Shown: in pieces, positions 2,776 through 48,425 of the stretch
Layout: each line of letters starts with the position of its first letter
Numbering within the stretch: the first letter of the stretch is position 1
Assembly (NCBI GenBank): GCA_038128225.1
Contig: JAYPJF010000002.1
Span: 103,451-167,450 of the forward strand
Length of the DNA: 64,000 nucleotides
Direction: 5' to 3'
DNA from: a bacterium
Lineage (GTDB): Bacteria > Patescibacteriota > Minisyncoccia > Phycocordibacterales > UBA2100
Notes under the pieces: model-generated
Database searches by the model: none
What the model saw: only the letters and a program-made list of their open reading frames with translations
Told to the model about the DNA's origin: nothing
Position numbers and translations under genes: made by a program

Positions 2776-3738
2776 ATGGGTTTCTTTAAGGATCTGTTCG
2801 GCGGCAGTTCCGAGTCCGCGCCGCCGGTTGTTCCCGTTCCCACCGTGGAGGACGATCCGTACTACGATCGGAACAATGACCCGGCGATGGGCATCTTCGA
2901 CGGCGGCACGATCGCCGCTATGTTGAAGGCTGGCCAGAATCTGGCGGTCGGCGATACTGCCGAGAACCAGTGGAGCGGGAACGACGAAATTGTCGAGGCG
3001 ATCGCCCAGTACTGGGGCGCCGAAGTCCCGAACCTGGCCGCGATCGCCGACGAAGGCGTCGGCCCCGTCAACGACTGGCTCAAGCAGCATGGCGTCGACC
3101 TCGCGCTTCAGAACCAGGGTCCCGGCCTGTATATGGCCGCGGTCCAGAGCGCGACGATGTTCTGGAGCCAGGCCGGCAGGGCGGCTGAGCTCGACATCCC
3201 CTCAATGGGGGAGCGTGTTCCGGGGTTCGTCCTCGAGGGCGAGCAGGTCGAGGTCTTCGAAGACCTCGACGGTCATCCTTTCGCTCGCATCGCGACGAAG
3301 GATGGGTCCCACGTCTACGTGTGCCCGCTGCCCGAGGAGTATGAGCCTGTCGGCGGCATCGGGCTCATTGATGCCGCTCGCGCTCTCGTCGAGATGACGC
3401 AGGAGGCGAAGCAGAGCCGGAATTACTCCGGCATCCACCTACCCTGTGTCGACTACACGGGAGGGTGCAAGCTCACGGCGCTTCTCGGGATGAACCTCGG
3501 GTCGCTTGAGATCAAGGAGGCGCTCACGGCGCTTTCGCTCAAGATGAACCGGTTTGGTGCGGCCGACAAGGTCGCATCCGCTGCCGGTGGATTCGAGAGT
3601 ACGCCCGCTCCCGCCCTCGTGGTCGACAGCGCCTTCTTCTACTTCAGGACGGCGCCGGGGAGCGATCTGCCGCTCGTCACGGCGGTGATTCCGGTTTCTG
3701 GCTTCAAGGATCCTGGTGACGACGCCATTGCGGCGTAG
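2776..3738 (+). CDS. hypothetical protein encoded by a high-GC (Actinobacteria-like codon usage) gene; likely horizontally acquired
   Basis: Strong SD (AAAGAGGAGAAACCTC) before the ATG. GC and GC3 are clearly higher than in flanking genes. No family recognised from motifs (PYYDRNNDP, HVYVCPLPEEYEPVGG). Confidence 0.6.
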   Translation: MGFFKDLFGGSSESAPPVVPVPTVEDDPYYDRNNDPAMGIFDGGTIAAMLKAGQNLAVGDTAENQWSGNDEIVEAIAQYWGAEVPNLAAIADEGVGPVNDWLKQHGVDLALQNQGPGLYMAAVQSATMFWSQAGRAAELDIPSMGERVPGFVLEGEQVEVFEDLDGHPFARIATKDGSHVYVCPLPEEYEPVGGIGLIDAARALVEMTQEAKQSRNYSGIHLPCVDYTGGCKLTALLGMNLGSLEIKEALTALSLKMNRFGAADKVASAAGGFESTPAPALVVDSAFFYFRTAPGSDLPLVTAVIPVSGFKDPGDDAIAA

Positions 3739-3767
3739 AGTCGCTGACGCCTGAAGCCACAAAAAAT

Positions 3768-3801
3768 GCCCCGGGCGCTTACGCGCCCGGGGTCTTCGTT
3801 T
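3768..3801 (+). terminator. rho-independent terminator after the high-GC gene
   Basis: GCCCCGGGCGC-TTAC-GCGCCCGGGG hairpin followed by TCTTCGTTT. Confidence 0.6.
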
Positions 3802-3831
3802 ACAATAAAAGTTGTTGTACAGTGGGCGGAC

Positions 3832-3907
3832 GGGCCCGTAGCTCAGCTGGTAGAGCGCTGCATTCGCATTGCAGAGGTCAGGGATTCGATCTCCCTCGGG
3901 TCCACCA
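3832..3907 (+). tRNA. tRNA-Ala (anticodon CGC), CCA encoded
   Basis: Manual cloverleaf: acceptor GGGCCCG/CGGGTCC; D-arm GCTC..GAGC; anticodon stem CTGCA/TGCAG with loop TTCGCAT; T-arm AGGGA-TTCGATC-TCCCT; 3' ACCA. Confidence 0.85.
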
Positions 3908-3909
3908 CT

Positions 3910-4749
3910 ATGATTCTTTTGTTTTATAAATACATCACCATAGTTGACCCTAAGACGCTCGCCGAGAAAGTGCGCGTGTACGCCGAAAAACTAGATCTTT
4001 TGGGGCGCATCATTGTTGCAGAAGAAGGGATAAACGGCACCGTCGAAAGTTCGTCGGAAGCAGCGCAAGAATTTTCGGATTTTCTACACACGCTGCCCGG
4101 ATTAGCCGACATGAATATCAAAACAAGCGAAGGGGAGCGAGCTTTCCGAAAGCTCTCAGTAAAAGTACGAAAAGAGATCGTCGGGACCCATTTCCCACAA
4201 GACATTGACCCGCGCGTGCGCACCGCAGTGCACATTCCTGCGCAAACCCTCCGTGAGTGGTATCGGTCGGGGAAGCAGTTTACGGTGGTTGACATGCGTA
4301 ACAGTTACGAATATGCGTCGGGACATTTCAAAAACTCGATTGATCCGGGGATGGAAGCATCGCGCGACCTCCCGGAAGTCATGCCGAAACTCGCGCCGTA
4401 TAAAAACAAAACGGTGGTGACGGTATGCACTGGTGGTGTCCGGTGCGAAAAAATGTCAGCGTACCTTTTGAAAGAAGGATTTACCGATGTGTACCAACTT
4501 GAAAACGGGATCCATACATACATGCAACAGTTTCCTGGTGAGGACTTTGAGGGAACGCTCTATACGTTTGATACCCGCGTCACGATGGATTTCGGGGGCA
4601 AAAGAAAAGTGGTGGGCGCGTGTACTTTTTGCGGCAAACAGACTGAGCGCTACATCAACTGCGCCCAAGGAGAATGTCGAACACATTTTCTCGCGTGTAC
4701 TGAGTGCGCGCCACACGATCGAGCGATGTTCTGTACTCGTTGTAAATAA
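3910..4749 (+). CDS. trhO: rhodanese-domain tRNA U34 hydroxylase TrhO/YceA family (UPF0176) with C-terminal Cys-rich zinc-ribbon extension
   Basis: N-terminal FYKYITIVDP...LGRIIVAEEGINGTV signature. Rhodanese active-site Cys (VTVCTGGVRCEK). Cys cluster CTFCGK...CAQGEC...CTEC...CTRC. The ATG lies 2 nt after the tRNA CCA, so the exact start is uncertain. Confidence 0.7.
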   Translation: MILLFYKYITIVDPKTLAEKVRVYAEKLDLLGRIIVAEEGINGTVESSSEAAQEFSDFLHTLPGLADMNIKTSEGERAFRKLSVKVRKEIVGTHFPQDIDPRVRTAVHIPAQTLREWYRSGKQFTVVDMRNSYEYASGHFKNSIDPGMEASRDLPEVMPKLAPYKNKTVVTVCTGGVRCEKMSAYLLKEGFTDVYQLENGIHTYMQQFPGEDFEGTLYTFDTRVTMDFGGKRKVVGACTFCGKQTERYINCAQGECRTHFLACTECAPHDRAMFCTRCK

Positions 4750-10034: not shown

Positions 10035-10106
10035 GGCCCTATCGTCTATCGGCTAGGACGCGACCCTCTCACGGTCGAAAGCGGGGTTCGATTCCCCGTA
10101 GGGTCA
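10035..10106 (+). tRNA. tRNA-Glu (anticodon CTC), no encoded CCA
   Basis: Manual cloverleaf: acceptor GGCCCTA/TAGGGTC; D-arm GTC-TATCGGCTAG-GAC; anticodon stem CGACC/GGTCG with loop CTCTCAC; T-arm CGGGG-TTCGATT-CCCCG; discriminator A. Confidence 0.8.
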
Positions 10107-41411: not shown

Positions 41412-41551
41412 GTTTGTACCCGTACGAACATTCCTCGCATCAGCGAGGGAGTCATAACGGGCTTTCAAAGCGAGTATTTTTCAGCTAAGGTACACACAGA
41501 CCGGTTCTTTGAATGGTCAGGAAAAACCGGCGAAAAGTGAAAGGACAGACT

Positions 41552-42865
41552 ATGAACGCAACGGAGTCGTATGAGGCTTCTGGTGGGCGGTACCCACAGG
41601 GAGTACTTGTGTACGGAGGCAAGACCAAACGAGTGTATGAGGTTCGAGGAGACCCTCGCTTGGCAATCCTTTCTTCCAAAGATGACATCACCGCAGGAGA
41701 CGGTGCAAAACATGACGTTATGCCCGGCAAAGCACGTTTCGCAAACGAAACGACATGTAATGTCTTTAGATTGCTTGAAGCGTGCGACATCCCGGTGGCG
41801 TTCAAAGAGTACCTTAACGCAACAGCGTTTGTTGCGCATAAGTGCACCATGCTTCCGTTTGAGGTGGTGGTTCGGCGCGCAGCATGTGGGTCGTATCTCA
41901 AGCGCAACCCGCATTTCGCGCGCGAGCAGTTATTCCCTCGGCTTGTTGTCGAATTTTTTCTGAAGACGTCTGGGAGGAAGTGGGAAGAGCGTACACTTGA
42001 GTGTGATGATCCGCTCTTGGTTCATTCAGAAGAAGCGAGAACCATTTCTTTGTACCATCCCGCAAAGTTGTTCACGCCGCACGCACCGTTTCTTGTATTG
42101 CCTGAACTCGATGTCTTTAGGCACACAAGGAACCGGAATGTTTTTGCGGCATTGGAGCGCGTTGCTCGGCAGGCGTTTCTTGTGCTTGAGAAGGCTTGGC
42201 ACGTACAAAACGGCACGTTACTCGATTTCAAGGTTGAATTTGGCTTTGATGTCGATGGGAGCATACGCCTCGCAGACGTCATTGACAATGACTCGTGGCG
42301 TGTTGTTTCGAACGGCTCGCATCTCGACAAACAATTGTACCGCGATGGTGGTGCGCTGAATGTTGTAGAAAGAGCGTATGCGCGCGTCGCAAAAGTAACG
42401 CAGCGATTTTGCGTGCCTGCGCAGCGCATTTTTCTCTGGCGTGAGACGGTCGATACAAGCCTCGCAGTGTTTGAGAATACACTTGAGGGCCTGCACGACT
42501 TGATAACAGTTGTCACGTGTCCAGTACAAAGAAGACCCACCGCTGCGGTCACGACGCTGCAGAGTTTGCAGCACAGCGATCCAGACGCGGTCGTCGTCTT
42601 CTGTCAGGATTCGGTCGACGGTGCATGCAGCACGATACTTTCCCTACACTCGACCGTTCCGGTTATTGCAGTGTGCGCCGCTGGAGAGGTTCGCTCAAAC
42701 ACCTTGACGATCTCTACGACGAGAAAAGCGCCACTAATGCGCGTTAGCAGCCCAGAGGAAGCTGTTGCAGCTGCGTTGCAGATACTTGCCGTGCGAAATC
42801 CAAAGATCTACGCGCGGCAGTGTTTCGAAATGGAAAAGGACGCAGAGAACGCGTTCCGGATCTGA
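41552..42865 (+). CDS. purC: SAICAR synthetase (PurC) with a C-terminal degenerate PurE-like/flavodoxin-fold extension of about 160 aa
   Basis: The N-terminal 280 aa carry PurC blocks (YGGKTKRVYEV, ITAGDGAKHDVMPGKARFANETTCNVFRLL, LLDFKVEFG). The C-terminus (VVVFCQDSVDGACSTILSLHSTVPVIAVCAAGEV...ALQILAV) has a PurE-like alternating pattern but lacks the canonical PurE catalytic residues. Confidence 0.6.
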   Translation: MNATESYEASGGRYPQGVLVYGGKTKRVYEVRGDPRLAILSSKDDITAGDGAKHDVMPGKARFANETTCNVFRLLEACDIPVAFKEYLNATAFVAHKCTMLPFEVVVRRAACGSYLKRNPHFAREQLFPRLVVEFFLKTSGRKWEERTLECDDPLLVHSEEARTISLYHPAKLFTPHAPFLVLPELDVFRHTRNRNVFAALERVARQAFLVLEKAWHVQNGTLLDFKVEFGFDVDGSIRLADVIDNDSWRVVSNGSHLDKQLYRDGGALNVVERAYARVAKVTQRFCVPAQRIFLWRETVDTSLAVFENTLEGLHDLITVVTCPVQRRPTAAVTTLQSLQHSDPDAVVVFCQDSVDGACSTILSLHSTVPVIAVCAAGEVRSNTLTISTTRKAPLMRVSSPEEAVAAALQILAVRNPKIYARQCFEMEKDAENAFRI

Positions 42866-42952
42866 GAAGTGCATTTAGTACGCCCCCGGCGAATGCCGGG
42901 GGCTCTCTATATAAAACGGAAAAAATGCGCTATAGTGCAGCACACTTTTGAT

Positions 42953-44065
42953 ATGTCGAGCAGCAAACTAGCGATAGGGATAGTGGGACTTCCTAATGTC
43001 GGGAAATCGACGTTATTTACGGCGCTTACTAAAAAACAAGTGCTCATCGCAAACTATCCATTCGCGACCATCGATCCTACAGTAGGTGTTGTTGCAGTTC
43101 CTGATCGTAGGCTTGATCAACTGAGTGCAATGTCGAAATCACAGAAAATCGTTCCGGCAATCGTGGAGTTTGTTGACATCGCTGGCTTGGTAAAGGGAGC
43201 TTCGCAAGGGGAAGGACTCGGAAACCAGTTTCTTTCAAATATTCGGGAAGTAGATGCAATCGCGCATGTGGTGCGCATGTTTGATGATCCTGACATCACT
43301 CACGTGAGTGGAGAAGTCGACCCCCGTCATGACATTGAAGTAATAAATCTTGAACTTATTTTGGCAGATTTACAAAGCGCGACAAAACGCCTTGATCGAG
43401 TGACGCGTGACGCACGCTCTGGTGACAAACAGCTCATCGCAGAGCGTGATCTGCTTACGAAGATTGTTGCAACACTTGAAACAGGGAAAATGGCAAGCAC
43501 CGTAGCATATGATCCTTTGGAAGAGCCCCTAGTGAAGCAACTGCAACTTCTCACCACTAAGCCGGTTTTGTATGTTCTCAATCGCAAAAATGGCGCCGTT
43601 AACATTGATGCAGAAAACGGAAACCGATGGCGTGAGCTGCAGGACTATTTTAAGGAAACACACGCACATTATGTTCTCGTTGATGCTGCAACTGAACACG
43701 AGCTTAACGATGTACACGATGACGAACGTGAGCAGTTTCGCCGCGAACTCGGAGTTGATGTAAGCGGCGTGGACGCACTTATTAAAGCAGGGTACGAGAC
43801 GTTAGACTTGCTTTCATATTTTACTACAGGTGAAAAAGAGTCCCGAGCCTGGACCGTAACGCGCGGGGCGACTGCTCCAGAAGCTGCCGGTGTGATTCAC
43901 ACTGATTTTAAGGACAAATTTATTCGCGCGGATGTTATCCCATGGGAAGCGCTACTGAATGCCGGTTCGTGGAGTAGTGCGCGAGAGAAAGGATTAGTGC
44001 GAACAGAGGGGAAAGAATACATTGTGCAGGACGGTGATGTTATGGAATTTCGCCACGGCGCCTAA
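42953..44065 (+). CDS. ychF: ribosome-binding ATPase YchF (Obg-family GTPase)
   Basis: G1 [13 protein letters not shown]; NxxD-like [12 protein letters not shown]; C-terminal TGS domain ([13 protein letters not shown]). Confidence 0.9.
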
Positions 44066-44135
44066 AGCCACACACTTTTACTCTTAGCATTGCGTGATTG
44101 ATCGTCAGAAGAGGGAGGTGTACCATATCTGTATT

Positions 44136-45068
44136 ATGGAAAAACCAATACGGGCTACTCCCAAGGATTTCTTTGTGTGGTTGGGCGCACTTATTACGAT
44201 GTATGGAAGTGTCGCTGCGCTTATCACACTTCTTTTTCAGTATATCGACTATTCGTTTCCAGATCCGTTGGAATACTACTATGCCGATCCGTATTCTGGC
44301 CCAATTCGCTTTGCGATGGCGACATTGATTGTACTGGTCCCTGTGGCAATACTTTTGATGCGTATCATTCGCAAAGATATCGCACATAACCCAATGAAAA
44401 ACGATCTTTGGGTGAGGCGTTGGGCGCTCGTTCTTACAGTGTTTCTTGCCGCCGCGATTGCAATCGGCGACCTTATCACGCTCATCAATTACTTTTTAGG
44501 CGGTGAATTAACTGCACGCTTTTTGCTCAAGGTTGCGGTGGTGCTGCTCGTTGCAGGCGGTGTCTTTTTCCACTTTTTGGCAGACTTGCGTGGCTACTGG
44601 GCAAAAAATGCTGACAAAGCGAACATGGTTGGGATAGCGGCGGGTATTTTGGTCATACTCAGTATCACTGCAGGATTCTTCATTATGGGTTCGCCTGCAC
44701 AAGTCCGCCTGTATCGATTCGACGATCAAAAAGTACAAGATCTCACAAATATTCAATGGCAACTTGTTAACTACTACCAGCAAAAAGAGCGGTTGCCCGA
44801 TGCTCTTAGTGAGCTCGAAGATCCAATAAGCGGCTTCATCACTCCTACTGATCCTCAAACTGGTGAAACGTACCTGTACCAGAAAGAAGGCGATGAATCT
44901 TTCCGTTTGTGTGCACAGTTCAATACAGAAAGTCGACAAAGCCCCACGCGGCCGACATACAACGGCATTTCAGAAAATTGGGAACATGCCGAAGGTGAGA
45001 CTTGTTTCTCGCGCGTCATTGATCCCGAACGATACCCTCCGTTTGAGAAGCCTGTGCCAGCCCGGTAG
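44136..45068 (+). CDS. DUF5671 family membrane protein
   Basis: Four to five TM helices followed by QLVNYYQQKERLPDALSEL...ETYLYQKEGDESFRLCA, a pattern recurrent in Patescibacteria DUF5671 proteins. Start uncertain. Confidence 0.55.
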   Translation: MEKPIRATPKDFFVWLGALITMYGSVAALITLLFQYIDYSFPDPLEYYYADPYSGPIRFAMATLIVLVPVAILLMRIIRKDIAHNPMKNDLWVRRWALVLTVFLAAAIAIGDLITLINYFLGGELTARFLLKVAVVLLVAGGVFFHFLADLRGYWAKNADKANMVGIAAGILVILSITAGFFIMGSPAQVRLYRFDDQKVQDLTNIQWQLVNYYQQKERLPDALSELEDPISGFITPTDPQTGETYLYQKEGDESFRLCAQFNTESRQSPTRPTYNGISENWEHAEGETCFSRVIDPERYPPFEKPVPAR

Positions 45069-45177: not shown

Positions 45178-45516
45178 ATGATGCGCACACTGCTTGTGGT
45201 TGTTCTTATGCTTCTTGCCCAGTCCGCGGTTGGGGCACAAGAAGTTCACAAGATGATACAATCCTGGGTGTATGTAAGTTCGGATGGGATGCGAGTCGAA
45301 GAGTGGCACATGTACCCAAATGGAAGCCAAGTGCCTTATCGGAGTTTTGACTTTTCGGCTGAGCGATTTTGCAGTCATACAGTGTACACGATCGTCGGCG
45401 CGTCAACGATGACCAGCGATTGTGTCGCGTTCAAAGTTTTGTTGGCCACTCCAAAAGGCAAAACGCTTTTCAAAGAGATCAGCGCTCGTCGCGATGCGTT
45501 TTTAGCCAATAATTGA
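45178..45516 (+). CDS. small secreted hypothetical protein (signal peptide)
   Basis: MMRTLLVVVLMLLAQSAVGA signal. Terminator hairpin GAAGCGCGCAA...TTGCGCGCTTC follows at 45523-45560. Confidence 0.45.
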   Translation: MMRTLLVVVLMLLAQSAVGAQEVHKMIQSWVYVSSDGMRVEEWHMYPNGSQVPYRSFDFSAERFCSHTVYTIVGASTMTSDCVAFKVLLATPKGKTLFKEISARRDAFLANN

Positions 45517-45587: not shown

Positions 45588-48425
45588 ATGCGGTACGATC
45601 ACAAAAAGATTGAGAAGAAATGGCAAAAAAAGTGGAAAAGTTCTAACCTGTACAAAACAAAGGACGACCCAAAAAAGAAAAAGTCATACGTGCTAGACAT
45701 GTTCCCATACCCGTCGGGAGAAGGACTCCATGTTGGACATCCAAAAGGATATATTGCCACTGACGTGTATTCGCGCCTTAAACGCATGCAGGGTTTTAAC
45801 ACACTTCACCCGATGGGATGGGACGCTTTCGGTCTCCCTGCAGAAAATTTTGCAATCAAGAACAAAATCCACCCACGTAAAGCGGTGGAAAAGAACATCA
45901 AGCGCTTTAAAGAACAACTTGCAATGCTTGGTTTCAACTACGATTGGAGTCGAGAAATCAACACCACGGACCCTGCGTACTATAAATGGACACAATGGAT
46001 ATTTTTGCAGCTCTATAAAAAAGGTCTTGCGTATCAATCAAATGAGCCAATTAATTGGTGTCCCTCATGTCAAACAGGACTTTCGAATGAAGATCTTGAC
46101 GGTGGCCTGTGTGAGCGTTGTGGCTCACAAGTAGAAAAACGTTCAATGCGTCAGTGGGTGCTTCGAATCACCCGGTATGCTGACCGATTGCTGAACGATC
46201 TTGAACTTCTTCCTAAATGGCCAGAACATATCAAAGAAGCCCAGCGCAACTGGATTGGTAGAAGCGAGGGTGCGCTTGTGTCGTTTTCGCTAACAGATGT
46301 CCCAGGGCAGACAAGTGGCACACACCAGGTTGAGGTTTTTACAACACGGCCGGACACCATGTTTGGCGCTACTTTTGTCGCGATTTCTCCCGAGTTGGCG
46401 CAGAAGTGGATCGAAGTAGGATGGCAGGCGTCAAAAGAGGTGCATGAGTACGTACAAAAGGCGCTTGCAGATCGAATAACACAAGGCGTTAAAGGTGTTC
46501 AAGAGAAAACAGGAATTCACGCGGGCATTAGTGCAATCAACCCCGCAAATCAGGAAAAAATCCCTGTGTGGGTTGCGAATTATGTACTGGGCGACGTTGG
46601 CACAGGGGCCATTATGGCGGTGCCGGCACACGATGAGCGAGACTTTGAGTTCGCAAAAAAATATCAGCTCCCCATAGTACAGGTCGTAAAGCCGGTGTAT
46701 GTCGACAAGATAAACCCGGTTCGCGAGGGTGTAAAAAACACCAAGCGCTCAATTGTTATCATTGCCGTAAAACATTGGGAGAAAGATTTGTATCTCATGA
46801 ACGCCTCGGAAAAATATAAGTGGAAAATACTCTTTACTGGAGGAATCGAAGAAGGAGAGGATCCAGTAGAAACGGCTAAGCGTGAAATTCGTGAAGAAAG
46901 TGGCTACAAGAATTTTCGCTCTGGGCGAGTGCTTGATTTCGTACACAAAGATGTTTTCTACGCGCCGCATAAAGGGGTAAATCGCGAGGTTGACGTTACT
47001 AATGTTTTACTTGAGCTCGAAAATGGCGAGATGGGCGAGATCACGGAAGAAGAGCAGGCGCTCCACCAAGTCTCATGGAAGACGCGTGAGGAAATGATTC
47101 AAGAGATTTCACATGACAATCACCGCTTTGTATTTCGTTATGCCACTGAAGGGGGGCGGCCAAATGATTGGTCAGGGACCCTCATCCATTCAGGAGCTTT
47201 CGACGGAATGACCTCAGATCAGGCAAAAAAGAAAATCACCGATCATGTCGGAGGAGTATGGACAACAACATACCGCATCAAGGATTGGGTATTTTCGCGG
47301 CAGCGGTACTGGGGAGAGCCCATCCCCATTATTCATTGTGCCGCGTGCGGCGTGGTGCCAGTGCCAGATAAAGACCTTCCAGTAAAACTTCCTGAAGTTA
47401 AAAACTATGCACCGACAGGGACAGGAGAGTCGCCGCTTGCGGCGATCGAAAAATGGGTCAATGTAGCGTGTCCGCACTGTAAAGGGAGGGCAAAGCGCGA
47501 GACAAACACAATGCCGCAGTGGGCGGGGTCTTCCTGGTACTGGCTTCGTTTTATGGATCCAAAAAACAAAAAGTCTTTTGTTGATAAAAAAAAGGAGCGC
47601 TATTGGAAACCTGTCGATGTGTACGTAGGTGGGGATCATGCGGTGCGGCATCTTATTTATGCGCGCTTTTGGCATAAATTTTTGTATGACCTGCATCTGG
47701 TTTCCGGCAAAGAACCGTTCACGCGTCTTGAGTTTCTCGGGTTCATTCTTGCAGAAGATGGGCGCAAAATGTCTAAGCGTTGGGGGAACATCATACGTCC
47801 AGACGACATTGTGAAAACGTGGGGTGCAGACACACTGCGTCTGTATGAAATGTTTATGGGGCCGTTTACTGATGCGATTGCGTGGAACACAAACAACATG
47901 ATTGGTGTACGGCGATTTTTGGAGCGCGTATGGACTCTCAGGGAAAGTGTAAGCGCGAAAGATAATCGGGACCTCGACGCGGTGCTCCATCGCACTATCA
48001 AAAAAGTGGGCGAAGATATCGAGGCGTTTAAATTCAACACTGCCGTAAGTCAGATGATGGTGTTTGTTAACGAAGCGCACGGCAAAGTAGTGGGGCGTGC
48101 GCAGTGGGAAATGTTTCTGAAAATTCTCGCACCTTTTGCGCCACATAGCACAGAAGAACTCTGGACTCAGCTTGGCTACAAGAAATCAATCCATCGTGAA
48201 TCATGGCCAAAGTACAGTGCGCGAAAAATAAAAGTTGCTGTAACAACAATCGCAGTGCAGGTGAACGGCAAAGTGCGCGGAGAGGTTTCTCTTGCGCCCG
48301 ACGCACCCAAAGATGACGCGTGCGCGGCGGGCCGTCTTGCAGTTTTGAAGTGGCTCGAAAACAAAGAAGAAAAGAACGTGATCTATGTGCCGGGAAAAAT
48401 CCTGAACTTCGTTATTGGAGAATAA
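45588..48425 (+). CDS. leuS: leucyl-tRNA synthetase carrying an inserted Nudix hydrolase domain (insertion about 46690-47180)
   Basis: HIGH-type motif (HVGHPKGY); editing CP1 region; AVPAHDERDFEFAKKY; KMSKR-type motif (KMSKRWGN). Between the AVPAHD motif and GTLIHSGAFDG lies a Nudix fold of about 160 aa with the box GGIEEGEDPVETAKREIREESGY. Confidence 0.9.
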   Translation: MRYDHKKIEKKWQKKWKSSNLYKTKDDPKKKKSYVLDMFPYPSGEGLHVGHPKGYIATDVYSRLKRMQGFNTLHPMGWDAFGLPAENFAIKNKIHPRKAVEKNIKRFKEQLAMLGFNYDWSREINTTDPAYYKWTQWIFLQLYKKGLAYQSNEPINWCPSCQTGLSNEDLDGGLCERCGSQVEKRSMRQWVLRITRYADRLLNDLELLPKWPEHIKEAQRNWIGRSEGALVSFSLTDVPGQTSGTHQVEVFTTRPDTMFGATFVAISPELAQKWIEVGWQASKEVHEYVQKALADRITQGVKGVQEKTGIHAGISAINPANQEKIPVWVANYVLGDVGTGAIMAVPAHDERDFEFAKKYQLPIVQVVKPVYVDKINPVREGVKNTKRSIVIIAVKHWEKDLYLMNASEKYKWKILFTGGIEEGEDPVETAKREIREESGYKNFRSGRVLDFVHKDVFYAPHKGVNREVDVTNVLLELENGEMGEITEEEQALHQVSWKTREEMIQEISHDNHRFVFRYATEGGRPNDWSGTLIHSGAFDGMTSDQAKKKITDHVGGVWTTTYRIKDWVFSRQRYWGEPIPIIHCAACGVVPVPDKDLPVKLPEVKNYAPTGTGESPLAAIEKWVNVACPHCKGRAKRETNTMPQWAGSSWYWLRFMDPKNKKSFVDKKKERYWKPVDVYVGGDHAVRHLIYARFWHKFLYDLHLVSGKEPFTRLEFLGFILAEDGRKMSKRWGNIIRPDDIVKTWGADTLRLYEMFMGPFTDAIAWNTNNMIGVRRFLERVWTLRESVSAKDNRDLDAVLHRTIKKVGEDIEAFKFNTAVSQMMVFVNEAHGKVVGRAQWEMFLKILAPFAPHSTEELWTQLGYKKSIHRESWPKYSARKIKVAVTTIAVQVNGKVRGEVSLAPDAPKDDACAAGRLAVLKWLENKEEKNVIYVPGKILNFVIGE

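Follow-up and report, generated by a model that had tools for sequence, protein, structure and literature searches.

The locus considered here raises the question of whether a leucyl-tRNA synthetase (LeuRS) can carry a second, complete enzyme inside its own polypeptide chain and, if so, what such an enzyme would do there. The stretch of DNA that was analysed, called the window below, comprises 64,000 nucleotides (nt) of a contig from a bacterium of the Patescibacteriota, and the element in question is its leuS gene. A reading made without database searches (the sequence-only reading) had claimed that LeuRS was interrupted in frame at 46690-47180 by about 160 amino acids (aa) forming a Nudix hydrolase domain, and knew of no earlier description of such an insertion. 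It was found that the inserted segment is almost certainly a real, folded Nudix domain, that the motifs of the synthetase around it are intact, and that the same architecture recurs across a whole clade of related bacteria.

The host enzyme

The product of the leuS open reading frame (ORF) scored 952.6 bits against the TIGR00396 (leuS_bact) model, the cutoff of which is 548.4, and contained the HIGH and KMSKS signatures together with the editing motifs of the CP1 domain. These features are given below; their conservation was determined in an alignment of 92 sequences, and Tth stands for T. thermophilus LeuRS.

45588..48425, + strand: leuS ORF, 945 aa, uninterrupted, encoding a bacterial-type LeuRS that carries a nested Nudix domain
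45729..45740, + strand: HIGH signature HVGH, aa 48-51, of the class I synthetic site; H48, G50 and H51 invariant
46341..46358, + strand: Thr-rich editing motif TTRPDT, aa 252-257, of the CP1 editing site; pairs with Tth VFTTRPDT
46617..46643, + strand: editing-site motif AVPAHDERD, aa 344-352, with conserved Asp349, directly upstream of the insertion; pairs with Tth AVPAHDQRD
47766..47780, + strand: KMSKS loop in the form KMSKR, aa 727-731, of the synthetic site; K727, M728, S729 and K730 invariant

In the Thr-rich motif, T252 was invariant, and T253, R254, D256 and T257 were at least 90% conserved; in the AVPAHDERD motif, P346, H348, D349 and D352 were invariant. Both the synthetic motifs (HIGH and KMSKS) and the editing motifs (the Thr-rich motif and Asp349) of this LeuRS are intact.

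The full-length AlphaFold 2 (AF2) model, for which 92 aligned homologues were used, had a mean pLDDT of 89.7 and a pTM of 0.80, and the insert and both of its linkers were modelled at a pLDDT of ~86-97. In Foldseek comparisons, this model matched Tth LeuRS 2bte with E=2e-79 and E. coli LeuRS 4aq7 with a TMq of 0.76. Canonical bacterial LeuRS enzymes (Tth 2bte/1h3n and E. coli 4aq7; 32-36% identity, TMq 0.73-0.76) share with the window protein the catalytic core, the CP1 editing domain, the anticodon-binding domain and the HIGH, KMSKS and editing motifs. They differ from it in one CP1 loop, which is 14 residues long in the canonical enzyme (Tth 364-377), whereas the window LeuRS has an enzyme domain of ~157 residues there. 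No solved LeuRS with a comparable domain at this site was found by structure comparison with Foldseek.

Delimitation of the insertion

The insertion was delimited by alignment to the reference LeuRS. The upstream anchor, AVPAHDERDFEFAKKY, occupies aa 344-359 (nt 46617-46664), and the HMMER alignment to Tth LeuRS breaks at residues 363/378. The segment and its downstream flank are as follows.

46695..47165, + strand: inserted segment, aa ~370-526, ~157 aa, in a CP1 surface loop; replaces Tth 364-377
47175..47222, + strand: CP1 editing domain resumes, GTLIHSGAFDGMTSDQ, aa 530-545; pairs with Tth GIMVNSGPFDG from residue 378

The limits obtained in this way nearly coincide with those of the sequence-only reading, so that its claim of an in-frame insert of ~160 aa is confirmed. 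The site is the loop of the CP1 editing domain that comes after the helix following the editing-site Asp, and the match to PF13603, the LeuRS editing-domain model (185 positions), is interrupted by the insert near position 145. Close relatives without a Nudix domain (e.g. P0094) have 15-25 residues between the same flanks. The candidate explanation that the segment was an ordinary LeuRS-specific insertion, that is, a normal LeuRS loop, was rejected by the alignment to these relatives and to Tth LeuRS.

The origin of the insert in a mobile element, such as an intein or a transposon remnant, was considered as well. The insert had no Pfam match besides NUDIX and contained no Hint or endonuclease domain, and the repeats detected at it were of chance level (10-19 nt), none of them bracketing the insert. 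Since there were neither flanking repeats nor other domains, nothing pointed to a recent mobile element, and this origin was rejected. The GC content was 0.43-0.45 in the insert and 0.49-0.52 in its flanks.

The Nudix domain

The features of the domain itself are listed here.

46737..47150, + strand: Nudix fold core, aa 384-521, with a mixed beta-sheet, the catalytic helix 426-438 and C-terminal helices
46839..46907, + strand: Nudix box GGIEEGEDPVETAKREIREESGY, aa 418-440, an exact match to GX5EX7REUXEEXGU
46956..46985, + strand: X-loop region, aa 457-466; contains two aromatic residues, F457/Y458, at positions +17/+18 after the box, and K462, N465 and R466, which are specific to the subfamily

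The PF00293 (NUDIX) model, the gathering cutoff of which is 21.1 bits, matched aa 401-511 with 43.8 bits (E=3.3e-11) when the whole protein was searched and with 48.0 bits (E=1.6e-12) when the insert alone was used. The WKILFTGG strand (aa 412-419) runs into the Nudix box, and no further Nudix box was present in the six frames of the 64-kb window. An AF2 model of the insert alone had a pLDDT of 93.3 and a pTM of 0.87 and showed the canonical order of Nudix strands and helices. Compared with solved Nudix enzymes, it reached a Foldseek probability of 1.00 and a TMq of up to 0.70 at identities of 15-22%; the matches included 2azw (rmsd 2.8 A), M. smegmatis MutT1, NudI, CT771, the Aquifex Ap4A hydrolase 3i7u, Rv2985, RppH with Ap4A and NUDT2. 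Thus, the Pfam match, the exact box and the models bore out the claim that a complete Nudix fold with a canonical box lies between the LeuRS motifs named by the sequence-only reading, and structure prediction placed it as a confident autonomous domain in a surface loop of CP1.

Conservation was examined over 289 copies of the module. In the box, G418 was conserved at 98%, G419 at 96%, E424 at 77% (with Q at 14%), R432 at 76%, E433 at 99%, E436 at 97%, E437 at 100% and G439 at 97%. The strict form of the box was present in 202 of these copies and a relaxed form in 240. In addition, a set of residues specific to the subfamily (R387, K462, N465, R466, L477, E489 and W497) was 86-98% conserved, with values of 98% for K462, 95% for N465 and 86% for R466.

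Outside these positions the module diverges quickly. Among 83 orthologues, the identity of the insert was 33%, as against 68% for the N-terminal and 61% for the C-terminal part of LeuRS, so that the insert evolves about twice as fast as LeuRS, and its alignment did not contain any conserved stretch of 7-10 columns. A sequence that diverges rapidly as a whole while its catalytic residues stay fixed bears the hallmark of a functional enzyme. Judging by these alignments, purifying selection acts strongly on the Nudix box in hundreds of copies, and it is very likely that the module is catalytically active.

A non-catalytic role, in which the Nudix fold would serve as a structural spacer, a ligand sensor modulating editing or a protein-interaction module, is highly improbable, even when it is taken together with an artefact or an ordinary LeuRS insertion. 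In its favour, non-enzymatic proteins with a Nudix fold exist (PMC5389931), and the strict box is missing from ~30% of the copies, including all three at one of the other insertion sites (site C, see below). Against this, the box of the window copy is perfect, the metal-binding glutamates are kept in 97-100% of the subfamily copies, the Pfam cutoff is passed, and the canonical fold is predicted.

Distribution of the architecture

Among the 120 best LeuRS relatives, 111 had the Nudix insert, and all carriers with a name were metagenome-assembled genomes (MAGs) of Patescibacteria/Parcubacteria (Vogelbacteria, Paceibacterota and Parcubacteria GW2011). Moreover, an identical protein was found on two contigs (NCBI and Logan), one of them 345 kb long. 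Considering these two results, the architecture is not the product of an assembly error or a frameshift; identical independent contigs and more than 100 orthologues exclude an artefact.

When species-representative genomes were searched, the insert was present at 19 of the 80 nearest LeuRS loci. These 19 carriers were all MAGs of the Patescibacteria type (Zambryskibacteria, Moranbacteria, Parcubacteria and Paceibacterota), and the remaining loci (Bacillota and others) had a LeuRS of normal length. The architecture is therefore clade-wide and not peculiar to one genome. An exhaustive HMMER search with the insert returned 277 cluster representatives at E<=1e-3 among 1.84 billion, most of them inside LeuRS; so small a number indicates a narrow subfamily. 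A word-index search based on shared 5-mers gave no matches with the insert alone, the module being too divergent for it.

Some carriers or close relatives bore unexpected taxonomic labels: P0043 and the loci L024, L030, L033, L040 and L049 were labelled Nanoarchaeia, Pacearchaeota, Bacilli or Gammaproteobacteria. Judging by their LeuRS sequences, these are probably mis-binned or mis-labelled MAGs of Patescibacteria.

Insertion sites and other nested enzymes

Local mapping of the LeuRS parts revealed that Nudix domains of this one subfamily are inserted at three sites of the synthetase.

Site A, the site of the window: 197 copies
Site B, after window aa ~206-235, at the CP1 hinge: 34 copies
Site C, after window aa ~626-636: 3 copies

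Copies at sites B or C were seen in P0012, P0017, P0032, P0118, P0121, P0122, P0123 and P0166. Five proteins (P0012, P0017, P0032, P0121 and P0122) contained three Nudix domains each, two in tandem at site B and one at site A. The copies clustered mainly by site; nevertheless, several site-B copies were closest to the site-A copies of other proteins, which points to repeated intragenic re-insertion, and the site-B copy of P0124 was 54% identical to the copy in the window.

Domains of other families were nested at surface sites of LeuRS in relatives as well, namely Ham1/ITPase (P0003 and P0161), a serine alpha/beta-hydrolase (P0017, P0034, P0136, P0138 and P0264), a HAD phosphatase (P0032 and P0211) and a methyltransferase (P0111). 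LeuRS proteins with such additional enzymes reach 1,100-1,530 aa. Going by these proteins, LeuRS in this group of bacteria seems to be a general scaffold for modules of the hydrolase type.

Gene neighbourhood, stand-alone copies and losses

The genes around leuS in the window are arranged as follows.

42869-44065: YchF
44094-45068: DUF5671
45178-45516, + strand: ORF of 112 aa between DUF5671 and leuS, with an N-terminus resembling a signal peptide and no Pfam match

CysRS and CorA lie downstream of leuS on the minus strand. In relatives, the position of the 112-aa ORF is taken by a stand-alone Nudix gene (P0140) or by a DUF7768 protein (L097). The possibility that this ORF was the remnant of a stand-alone Nudix gene upstream of leuS was rejected, as it had neither a trace of Nudix nor a Pfam match.

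Stand-alone genes of ~161-163 aa upstream of leuS were found at the loci L001/L002 (3833-4324 / 3476-3967) and L014-L016 and on the contig of P0140. The stand-alone Nudix P0140 (JGI 3300071358 contig) lies 2 nt upstream of a LeuRS that bears the insert, in the same YchF-DUF5671 synteny, and P0171 lies 136 nt upstream of another insert-bearing LeuRS, behind a Mur ligase. P0224 has the same synteny as the window and is located 3 nt upstream of a LeuRS without the insert. At L014-L016, the LeuRS downstream of the stand-alone gene has no insert. On the evidence of gene order, a stand-alone Nudix beside an insert-less LeuRS is a Rosetta-stone pair. Two further stand-alone members were not near leuS: P0179 (L004-L006; L004 4001-4513) lies 4 nt downstream of Fpg/MutM and overlaps a SpoU methylase, and P0208 adjoins another Nudix gene. 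P0209, which appears to be a frameshifted LeuRS fragment, and P0199, which abuts a class I synthetase-like fragment of 208 aa, were not counted as independent stand-alone genes.

It was considered whether a LeuRS without the domain always has a stand-alone Nudix gene next to it. This held for P0224 and failed for P0027, P0083 and P0094, and the rule was rejected. One Nudix-less locus, L097, has exactly the gene order of the window, including CysRS and CorA. As a separate observation, in the Nudix-less P0027 and P0060 (L097 4001-6310; ~70% identity to the window protein, identical synteny) the 'G.L.NSG.FDG' stretch of CP1 next to the insertion site is missing too, so that the deletion in the editing domain seems to have been larger than the insert.

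The simplest history compatible with these sequences would be one early gain in the LeuRS clade, followed by duplication and re-insertion of the module at other surface sites of LeuRS (intragenic spread) and by at least two losses. In such a history, the module would occasionally have separated from LeuRS, or would have persisted as a gene of its own immediately before leuS.

Substrate class of the module

A search with a single sequence gave marginal matches, led by the Aquifex Ap4A hydrolase. When a profile of 33 sequences was compared with the PDB, the top match was the lupin Ap4A hydrolase 1f3y (7.4e-9), followed by AvrM14, NUDT12, DIPP1 and 3i7u (the Aquifex Ap4A hydrolase). In NCBIfam, the RppH models were the top family for all 33 members, with a best E of 1.6e-8 and scores of 20-30 bits against cutoffs above 100. 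The insert of the window scored 22.8 bits with the RppH models (PRK00714), which is below the equivalog cutoff of 116, and it also stayed below the cutoffs of the MutT 8-oxo-dGTPase models NF008044 (13.6 bits, cutoff 148) and TIGR00586 (13.3 bits, cutoff 97.9).

The module has the same fold and Nudix box as RppH/NudH and the Nudix Ap4A hydrolases (1f3y, E. coli RppH 7sp3, 3i7u, CT771 and human NUDT2); it also has an aromatic residue in the X-loop and conserved basic residues that would suit a polyphosphate chain. It differs from them in that the identity is 15-22% and the scores are well under the family cutoffs, in that it forms a distinct, narrow subfamily with R387, K462, N465, R466, E489 and W497 of its own, and in that it is nested inside another enzyme, whereas RppH and the Ap4A hydrolases are free-standing. 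On sequence comparison, the module is related to the RppH/Ap4A-hydrolase group without belonging to it.

According to Dunn et al., as quoted in PMC5389931, the X-loop located ~17 residues downstream of the Nudix box is a determinant of specificity, and a conserved Tyr in it, ~16-18 residues after the box, marks ApnA hydrolases. In the module, the position +17 was F in 71% and Y in 24% of the 289 copies, and the position +18 was Y in 48% and F in 43%; that is, the aromatic character was always kept and Tyr was variable. The window copy has F457 and Y458 at these positions. Three other classes were rejected with the motifs given in the same review. The ADP-ribose pyrophosphatases have a conserved Pro ~16 residues downstream of the box, which was absent at +15 to +17 of the module (+16 is V in the window and K, E or R in the family). 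The SQPWPFPxS motif of NADH pyrophosphatases of the NudC type occurred in none of the 289 copies, and the NuCoA motif of CoA pyrophosphatases, LLTxR[SA]..., was likewise found upstream of the box in none of them. Considering the matches listed above, there is about an even chance that the substrate class is polyphosphate nucleotides (ApnA, NTP or the 5' end of RNA), and the conserved basic residues R387, K462 and R466 would be compatible with a polyphosphate chain.

The same matches bring forward an RNA-directed alternative, according to which the module is an RppH-like Nudix enzyme acting on RNA 5' ends, from which it would take off pyrophosphate or Np4 caps; the RNAs might be tRNA(Leu) precursors or other LeuRS-bound transcripts, with the synthetase acting as an RNA-binding platform. 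RppH models were the most consistent curated match (33/33 members), decapping enzymes (AvrM14, NUDT12, Dcp2 and DIPP1) and RppH were among the best PDB matches, and the module sits on CP1, which handles the 3' end of tRNA. However, it is the 3' end and not the 5' end that CP1 engages, mature tRNAs carry a 5' monophosphate after the action of RNase P, and the scores were far under the RppH cutoffs (~23 bits against 116). This alternative appears quite improbable.

The proposed role of the nested Nudix module

The favoured explanation, which is somewhat probable on the sequence evidence, is that the window encodes a bifunctional housekeeping LeuRS, one peripheral CP1 loop of which holds an autonomous hydrolase of nucleotide polyphosphates. 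The Nudix module would be an independent, Mg2+-dependent hydrolase, tethered to LeuRS and co-expressed with it, and the two would not share an active site. As substrates, dinucleoside polyphosphates (Ap4A/ApnN, by-products of the chemistry of aminoacyl adenylates) or the RNA caps to which they give rise would be the first choice, and non-canonical NTPs the second. Aminoacyl-tRNA synthetases have been reported to be the main source of Ap4A, which, like Np4 caps, is degraded by Nudix enzymes, RppH among them (PMC10148737).

A direct kinetic or allosteric coupling of the module to aminoacylation or editing is a different matter and appears unlikely. The sequence-only reading had proposed that Ap4A/NTP turnover could be coupled to aminoacylation. 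As a hypothesis, this would fit the nearest relatives of the module, Ap4A hydrolases and RppH, and the aromatic pair of the X-loop, both of which are weak evidence.

The main rival to the bifunctional explanation is that the module is a hitchhiking house-cleaning enzyme, for example, an NTP or 8-oxo-(d)GTP pyrophosphatase, which has nothing to do with leucylation. LeuRS would then be a permissive, constitutively expressed scaffold in a tiny genome, and the fusion would bring co-expression and gene economy and nothing else. This rival is possible without being probable, and it overlaps the favoured explanation, from which it differs mainly in coupling and substrate.

Several observations weigh against a dedicated Ap4A-related function of the nested module, and many of them speak for house-cleaning. 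Characterised Nudix enzymes resemble the module only remotely (15-22% identity; NCBIfam scores of 20-30 bits against cutoffs above 100), and the call of a substrate is therefore weak. MutT1, NudI and NudB reach scores similar to those of the Ap4A hydrolases and are equally good neighbours in structure and sequence. By the quoted X-loop rule, about half of the copies have Phe instead of the diagnostic Tyr at the ApnA position. LeuRS is not known to be among the strongest producers of Ap4A. The Ham1, HAD and serine-hydrolase domains that are nested alongside, and together with the methyltransferase occupy several LeuRS sites in relatives, fit generic house-cleaning better than an Ap4A-specific coupling. 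The stand-alone P0179 beside Fpg/MutM hints, by its genomic context, at a MutT-like role of some members acting on oxidised guanine nucleotides.

The losses point in the same direction. In a neighbour-joining tree built from LeuRS columns only and given without support values, LeuRS proteins without a Nudix domain fell inside the carrier clade at two places, indicating at least two losses and a LeuRS that does not depend on the module. At three Nudix-less LeuRS loci there was no Nudix gene within 4 kb. Loci of the same synteny that do without the domain and without a compensating neighbour speak against a mechanistic coupling of an obligate kind. A single ancient insertion followed by vertical descent could account for the narrowness of the subfamily. 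On the other side, the module is tied to leuS in ways that an economy of co-expression would not obviously call for, as it was re-inserted at three sites of LeuRS, is present in as many as three copies per protein and exists as a separate gene abutting leuS in three different contexts of synteny; moreover, the top profile match was an Ap4A hydrolase and the top curated family was RppH, not MutT.

A bolder extension of the favoured explanation would make the parcubacterial LeuRS a scaffold for alarmone and damage control, in which one to three nested Nudix copies destroy Ap4A/Np4N or Np4-RNA caps and wire translation to alarmone turnover, with Ham1, HAD, serine hydrolase and methyltransferase domains extending the hub. 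This extension is decidedly unlikely. In its stronger version, the Nudix domain on the editing domain would help to clear mis-activated adenylates or their products and would represent a new proofreading accessory.

Precedents and significance

No published account of a Nudix domain in LeuRS was found in full-text literature searches, which agrees with the sequence-only reading, to which no such description was known; nor did these searches return literature on such insertions in synthetases of Patescibacteria. The review of the Nudix clan (PMC5389931) makes no mention of tRNA synthetases. The sequences are public and have precomputed Pfam matches, and both families are known. As far as can be told, it is the nested combination, its conservation throughout the clade and its spread over several sites that are new. 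In the NCBI/PGAP annotation, P0007, P0009 and P0055 bear just the general name 'class I tRNA ligase family protein' in place of leucine--tRNA ligase, and a disturbance of automatic naming by the insert is a possible cause.

Two known systems resemble the present one. In NadM-Nudix enzymes (NF003786/NF003790/NF003791; PMC7824862), an adenylyltransferase of the HIGH superfamily is covalently joined to a Nudix domain that can act on a pyrophosphate-linked adenylate product, and the design logic is the one proposed for the window protein. In contrast to the window protein, which is nested, has an aminoacyl-tRNA synthetase as its host and lacks the proline motif of the ADP-ribose pyrophosphatases, they are end-to-end fusions of the ADP-ribose/NAD type. 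The second precedent, known from the name of the model alone, is an IleRS with an embedded N-acetyltransferase (NF040702, 'ileS_w_GNAT'), that is, a class Ia synthetase with an extra enzyme; it differs from LeuRS-Nudix in both the synthetase and the inserted fold. A curated LeuRS-Nudix model akin to NF040702 did not turn up in the NCBIfam scan.

Bacterial aminoacyl-tRNA synthetases are among the most conserved and best-studied enzymes, and intact foreign enzyme domains nested in them are rare. The present one is conserved across a large uncultured clade (Parcubacteria, candidate phyla radiation), the biology of which has been inferred largely from sequence. If the module hydrolysed Ap4A-type substrates, this would be the first case of a producer and a destroyer of Ap4A on one polypeptide, and experiments could then directly address the long-standing debate over Ap4A as a signalling molecule or as a product of damage. 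A hitchhiking house-cleaning enzyme would still be a clear example of the packaging of functions in ultra-small genomes, with three insertion sites, up to three copies and inserts of Ham1, HAD and hydrolase domains. The Nudix activity that these LeuRS proteins would contribute is uncounted in metabolic reconstructions.

Other observations in the window

A homologue of SAICAR synthetase (PurC) of 450 aa is encoded at 41513-42865 (+ strand). Its Pfam match covers ~aa 33-291 in two pieces and is followed by a C-terminal extension of ~150 aa without a Pfam match; this extension could represent another fused module, perhaps one resembling PurE.

Two tRNA genes were all the RNA genes detected in the window.

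3832-3907, + strand: tRNA-Ala(CGC)
10035-10106, + strand: tRNA-Glu(CTC)

The ORF at 3766-4749 overlaps the tRNA-Ala gene, and its listed start is probably wrong.

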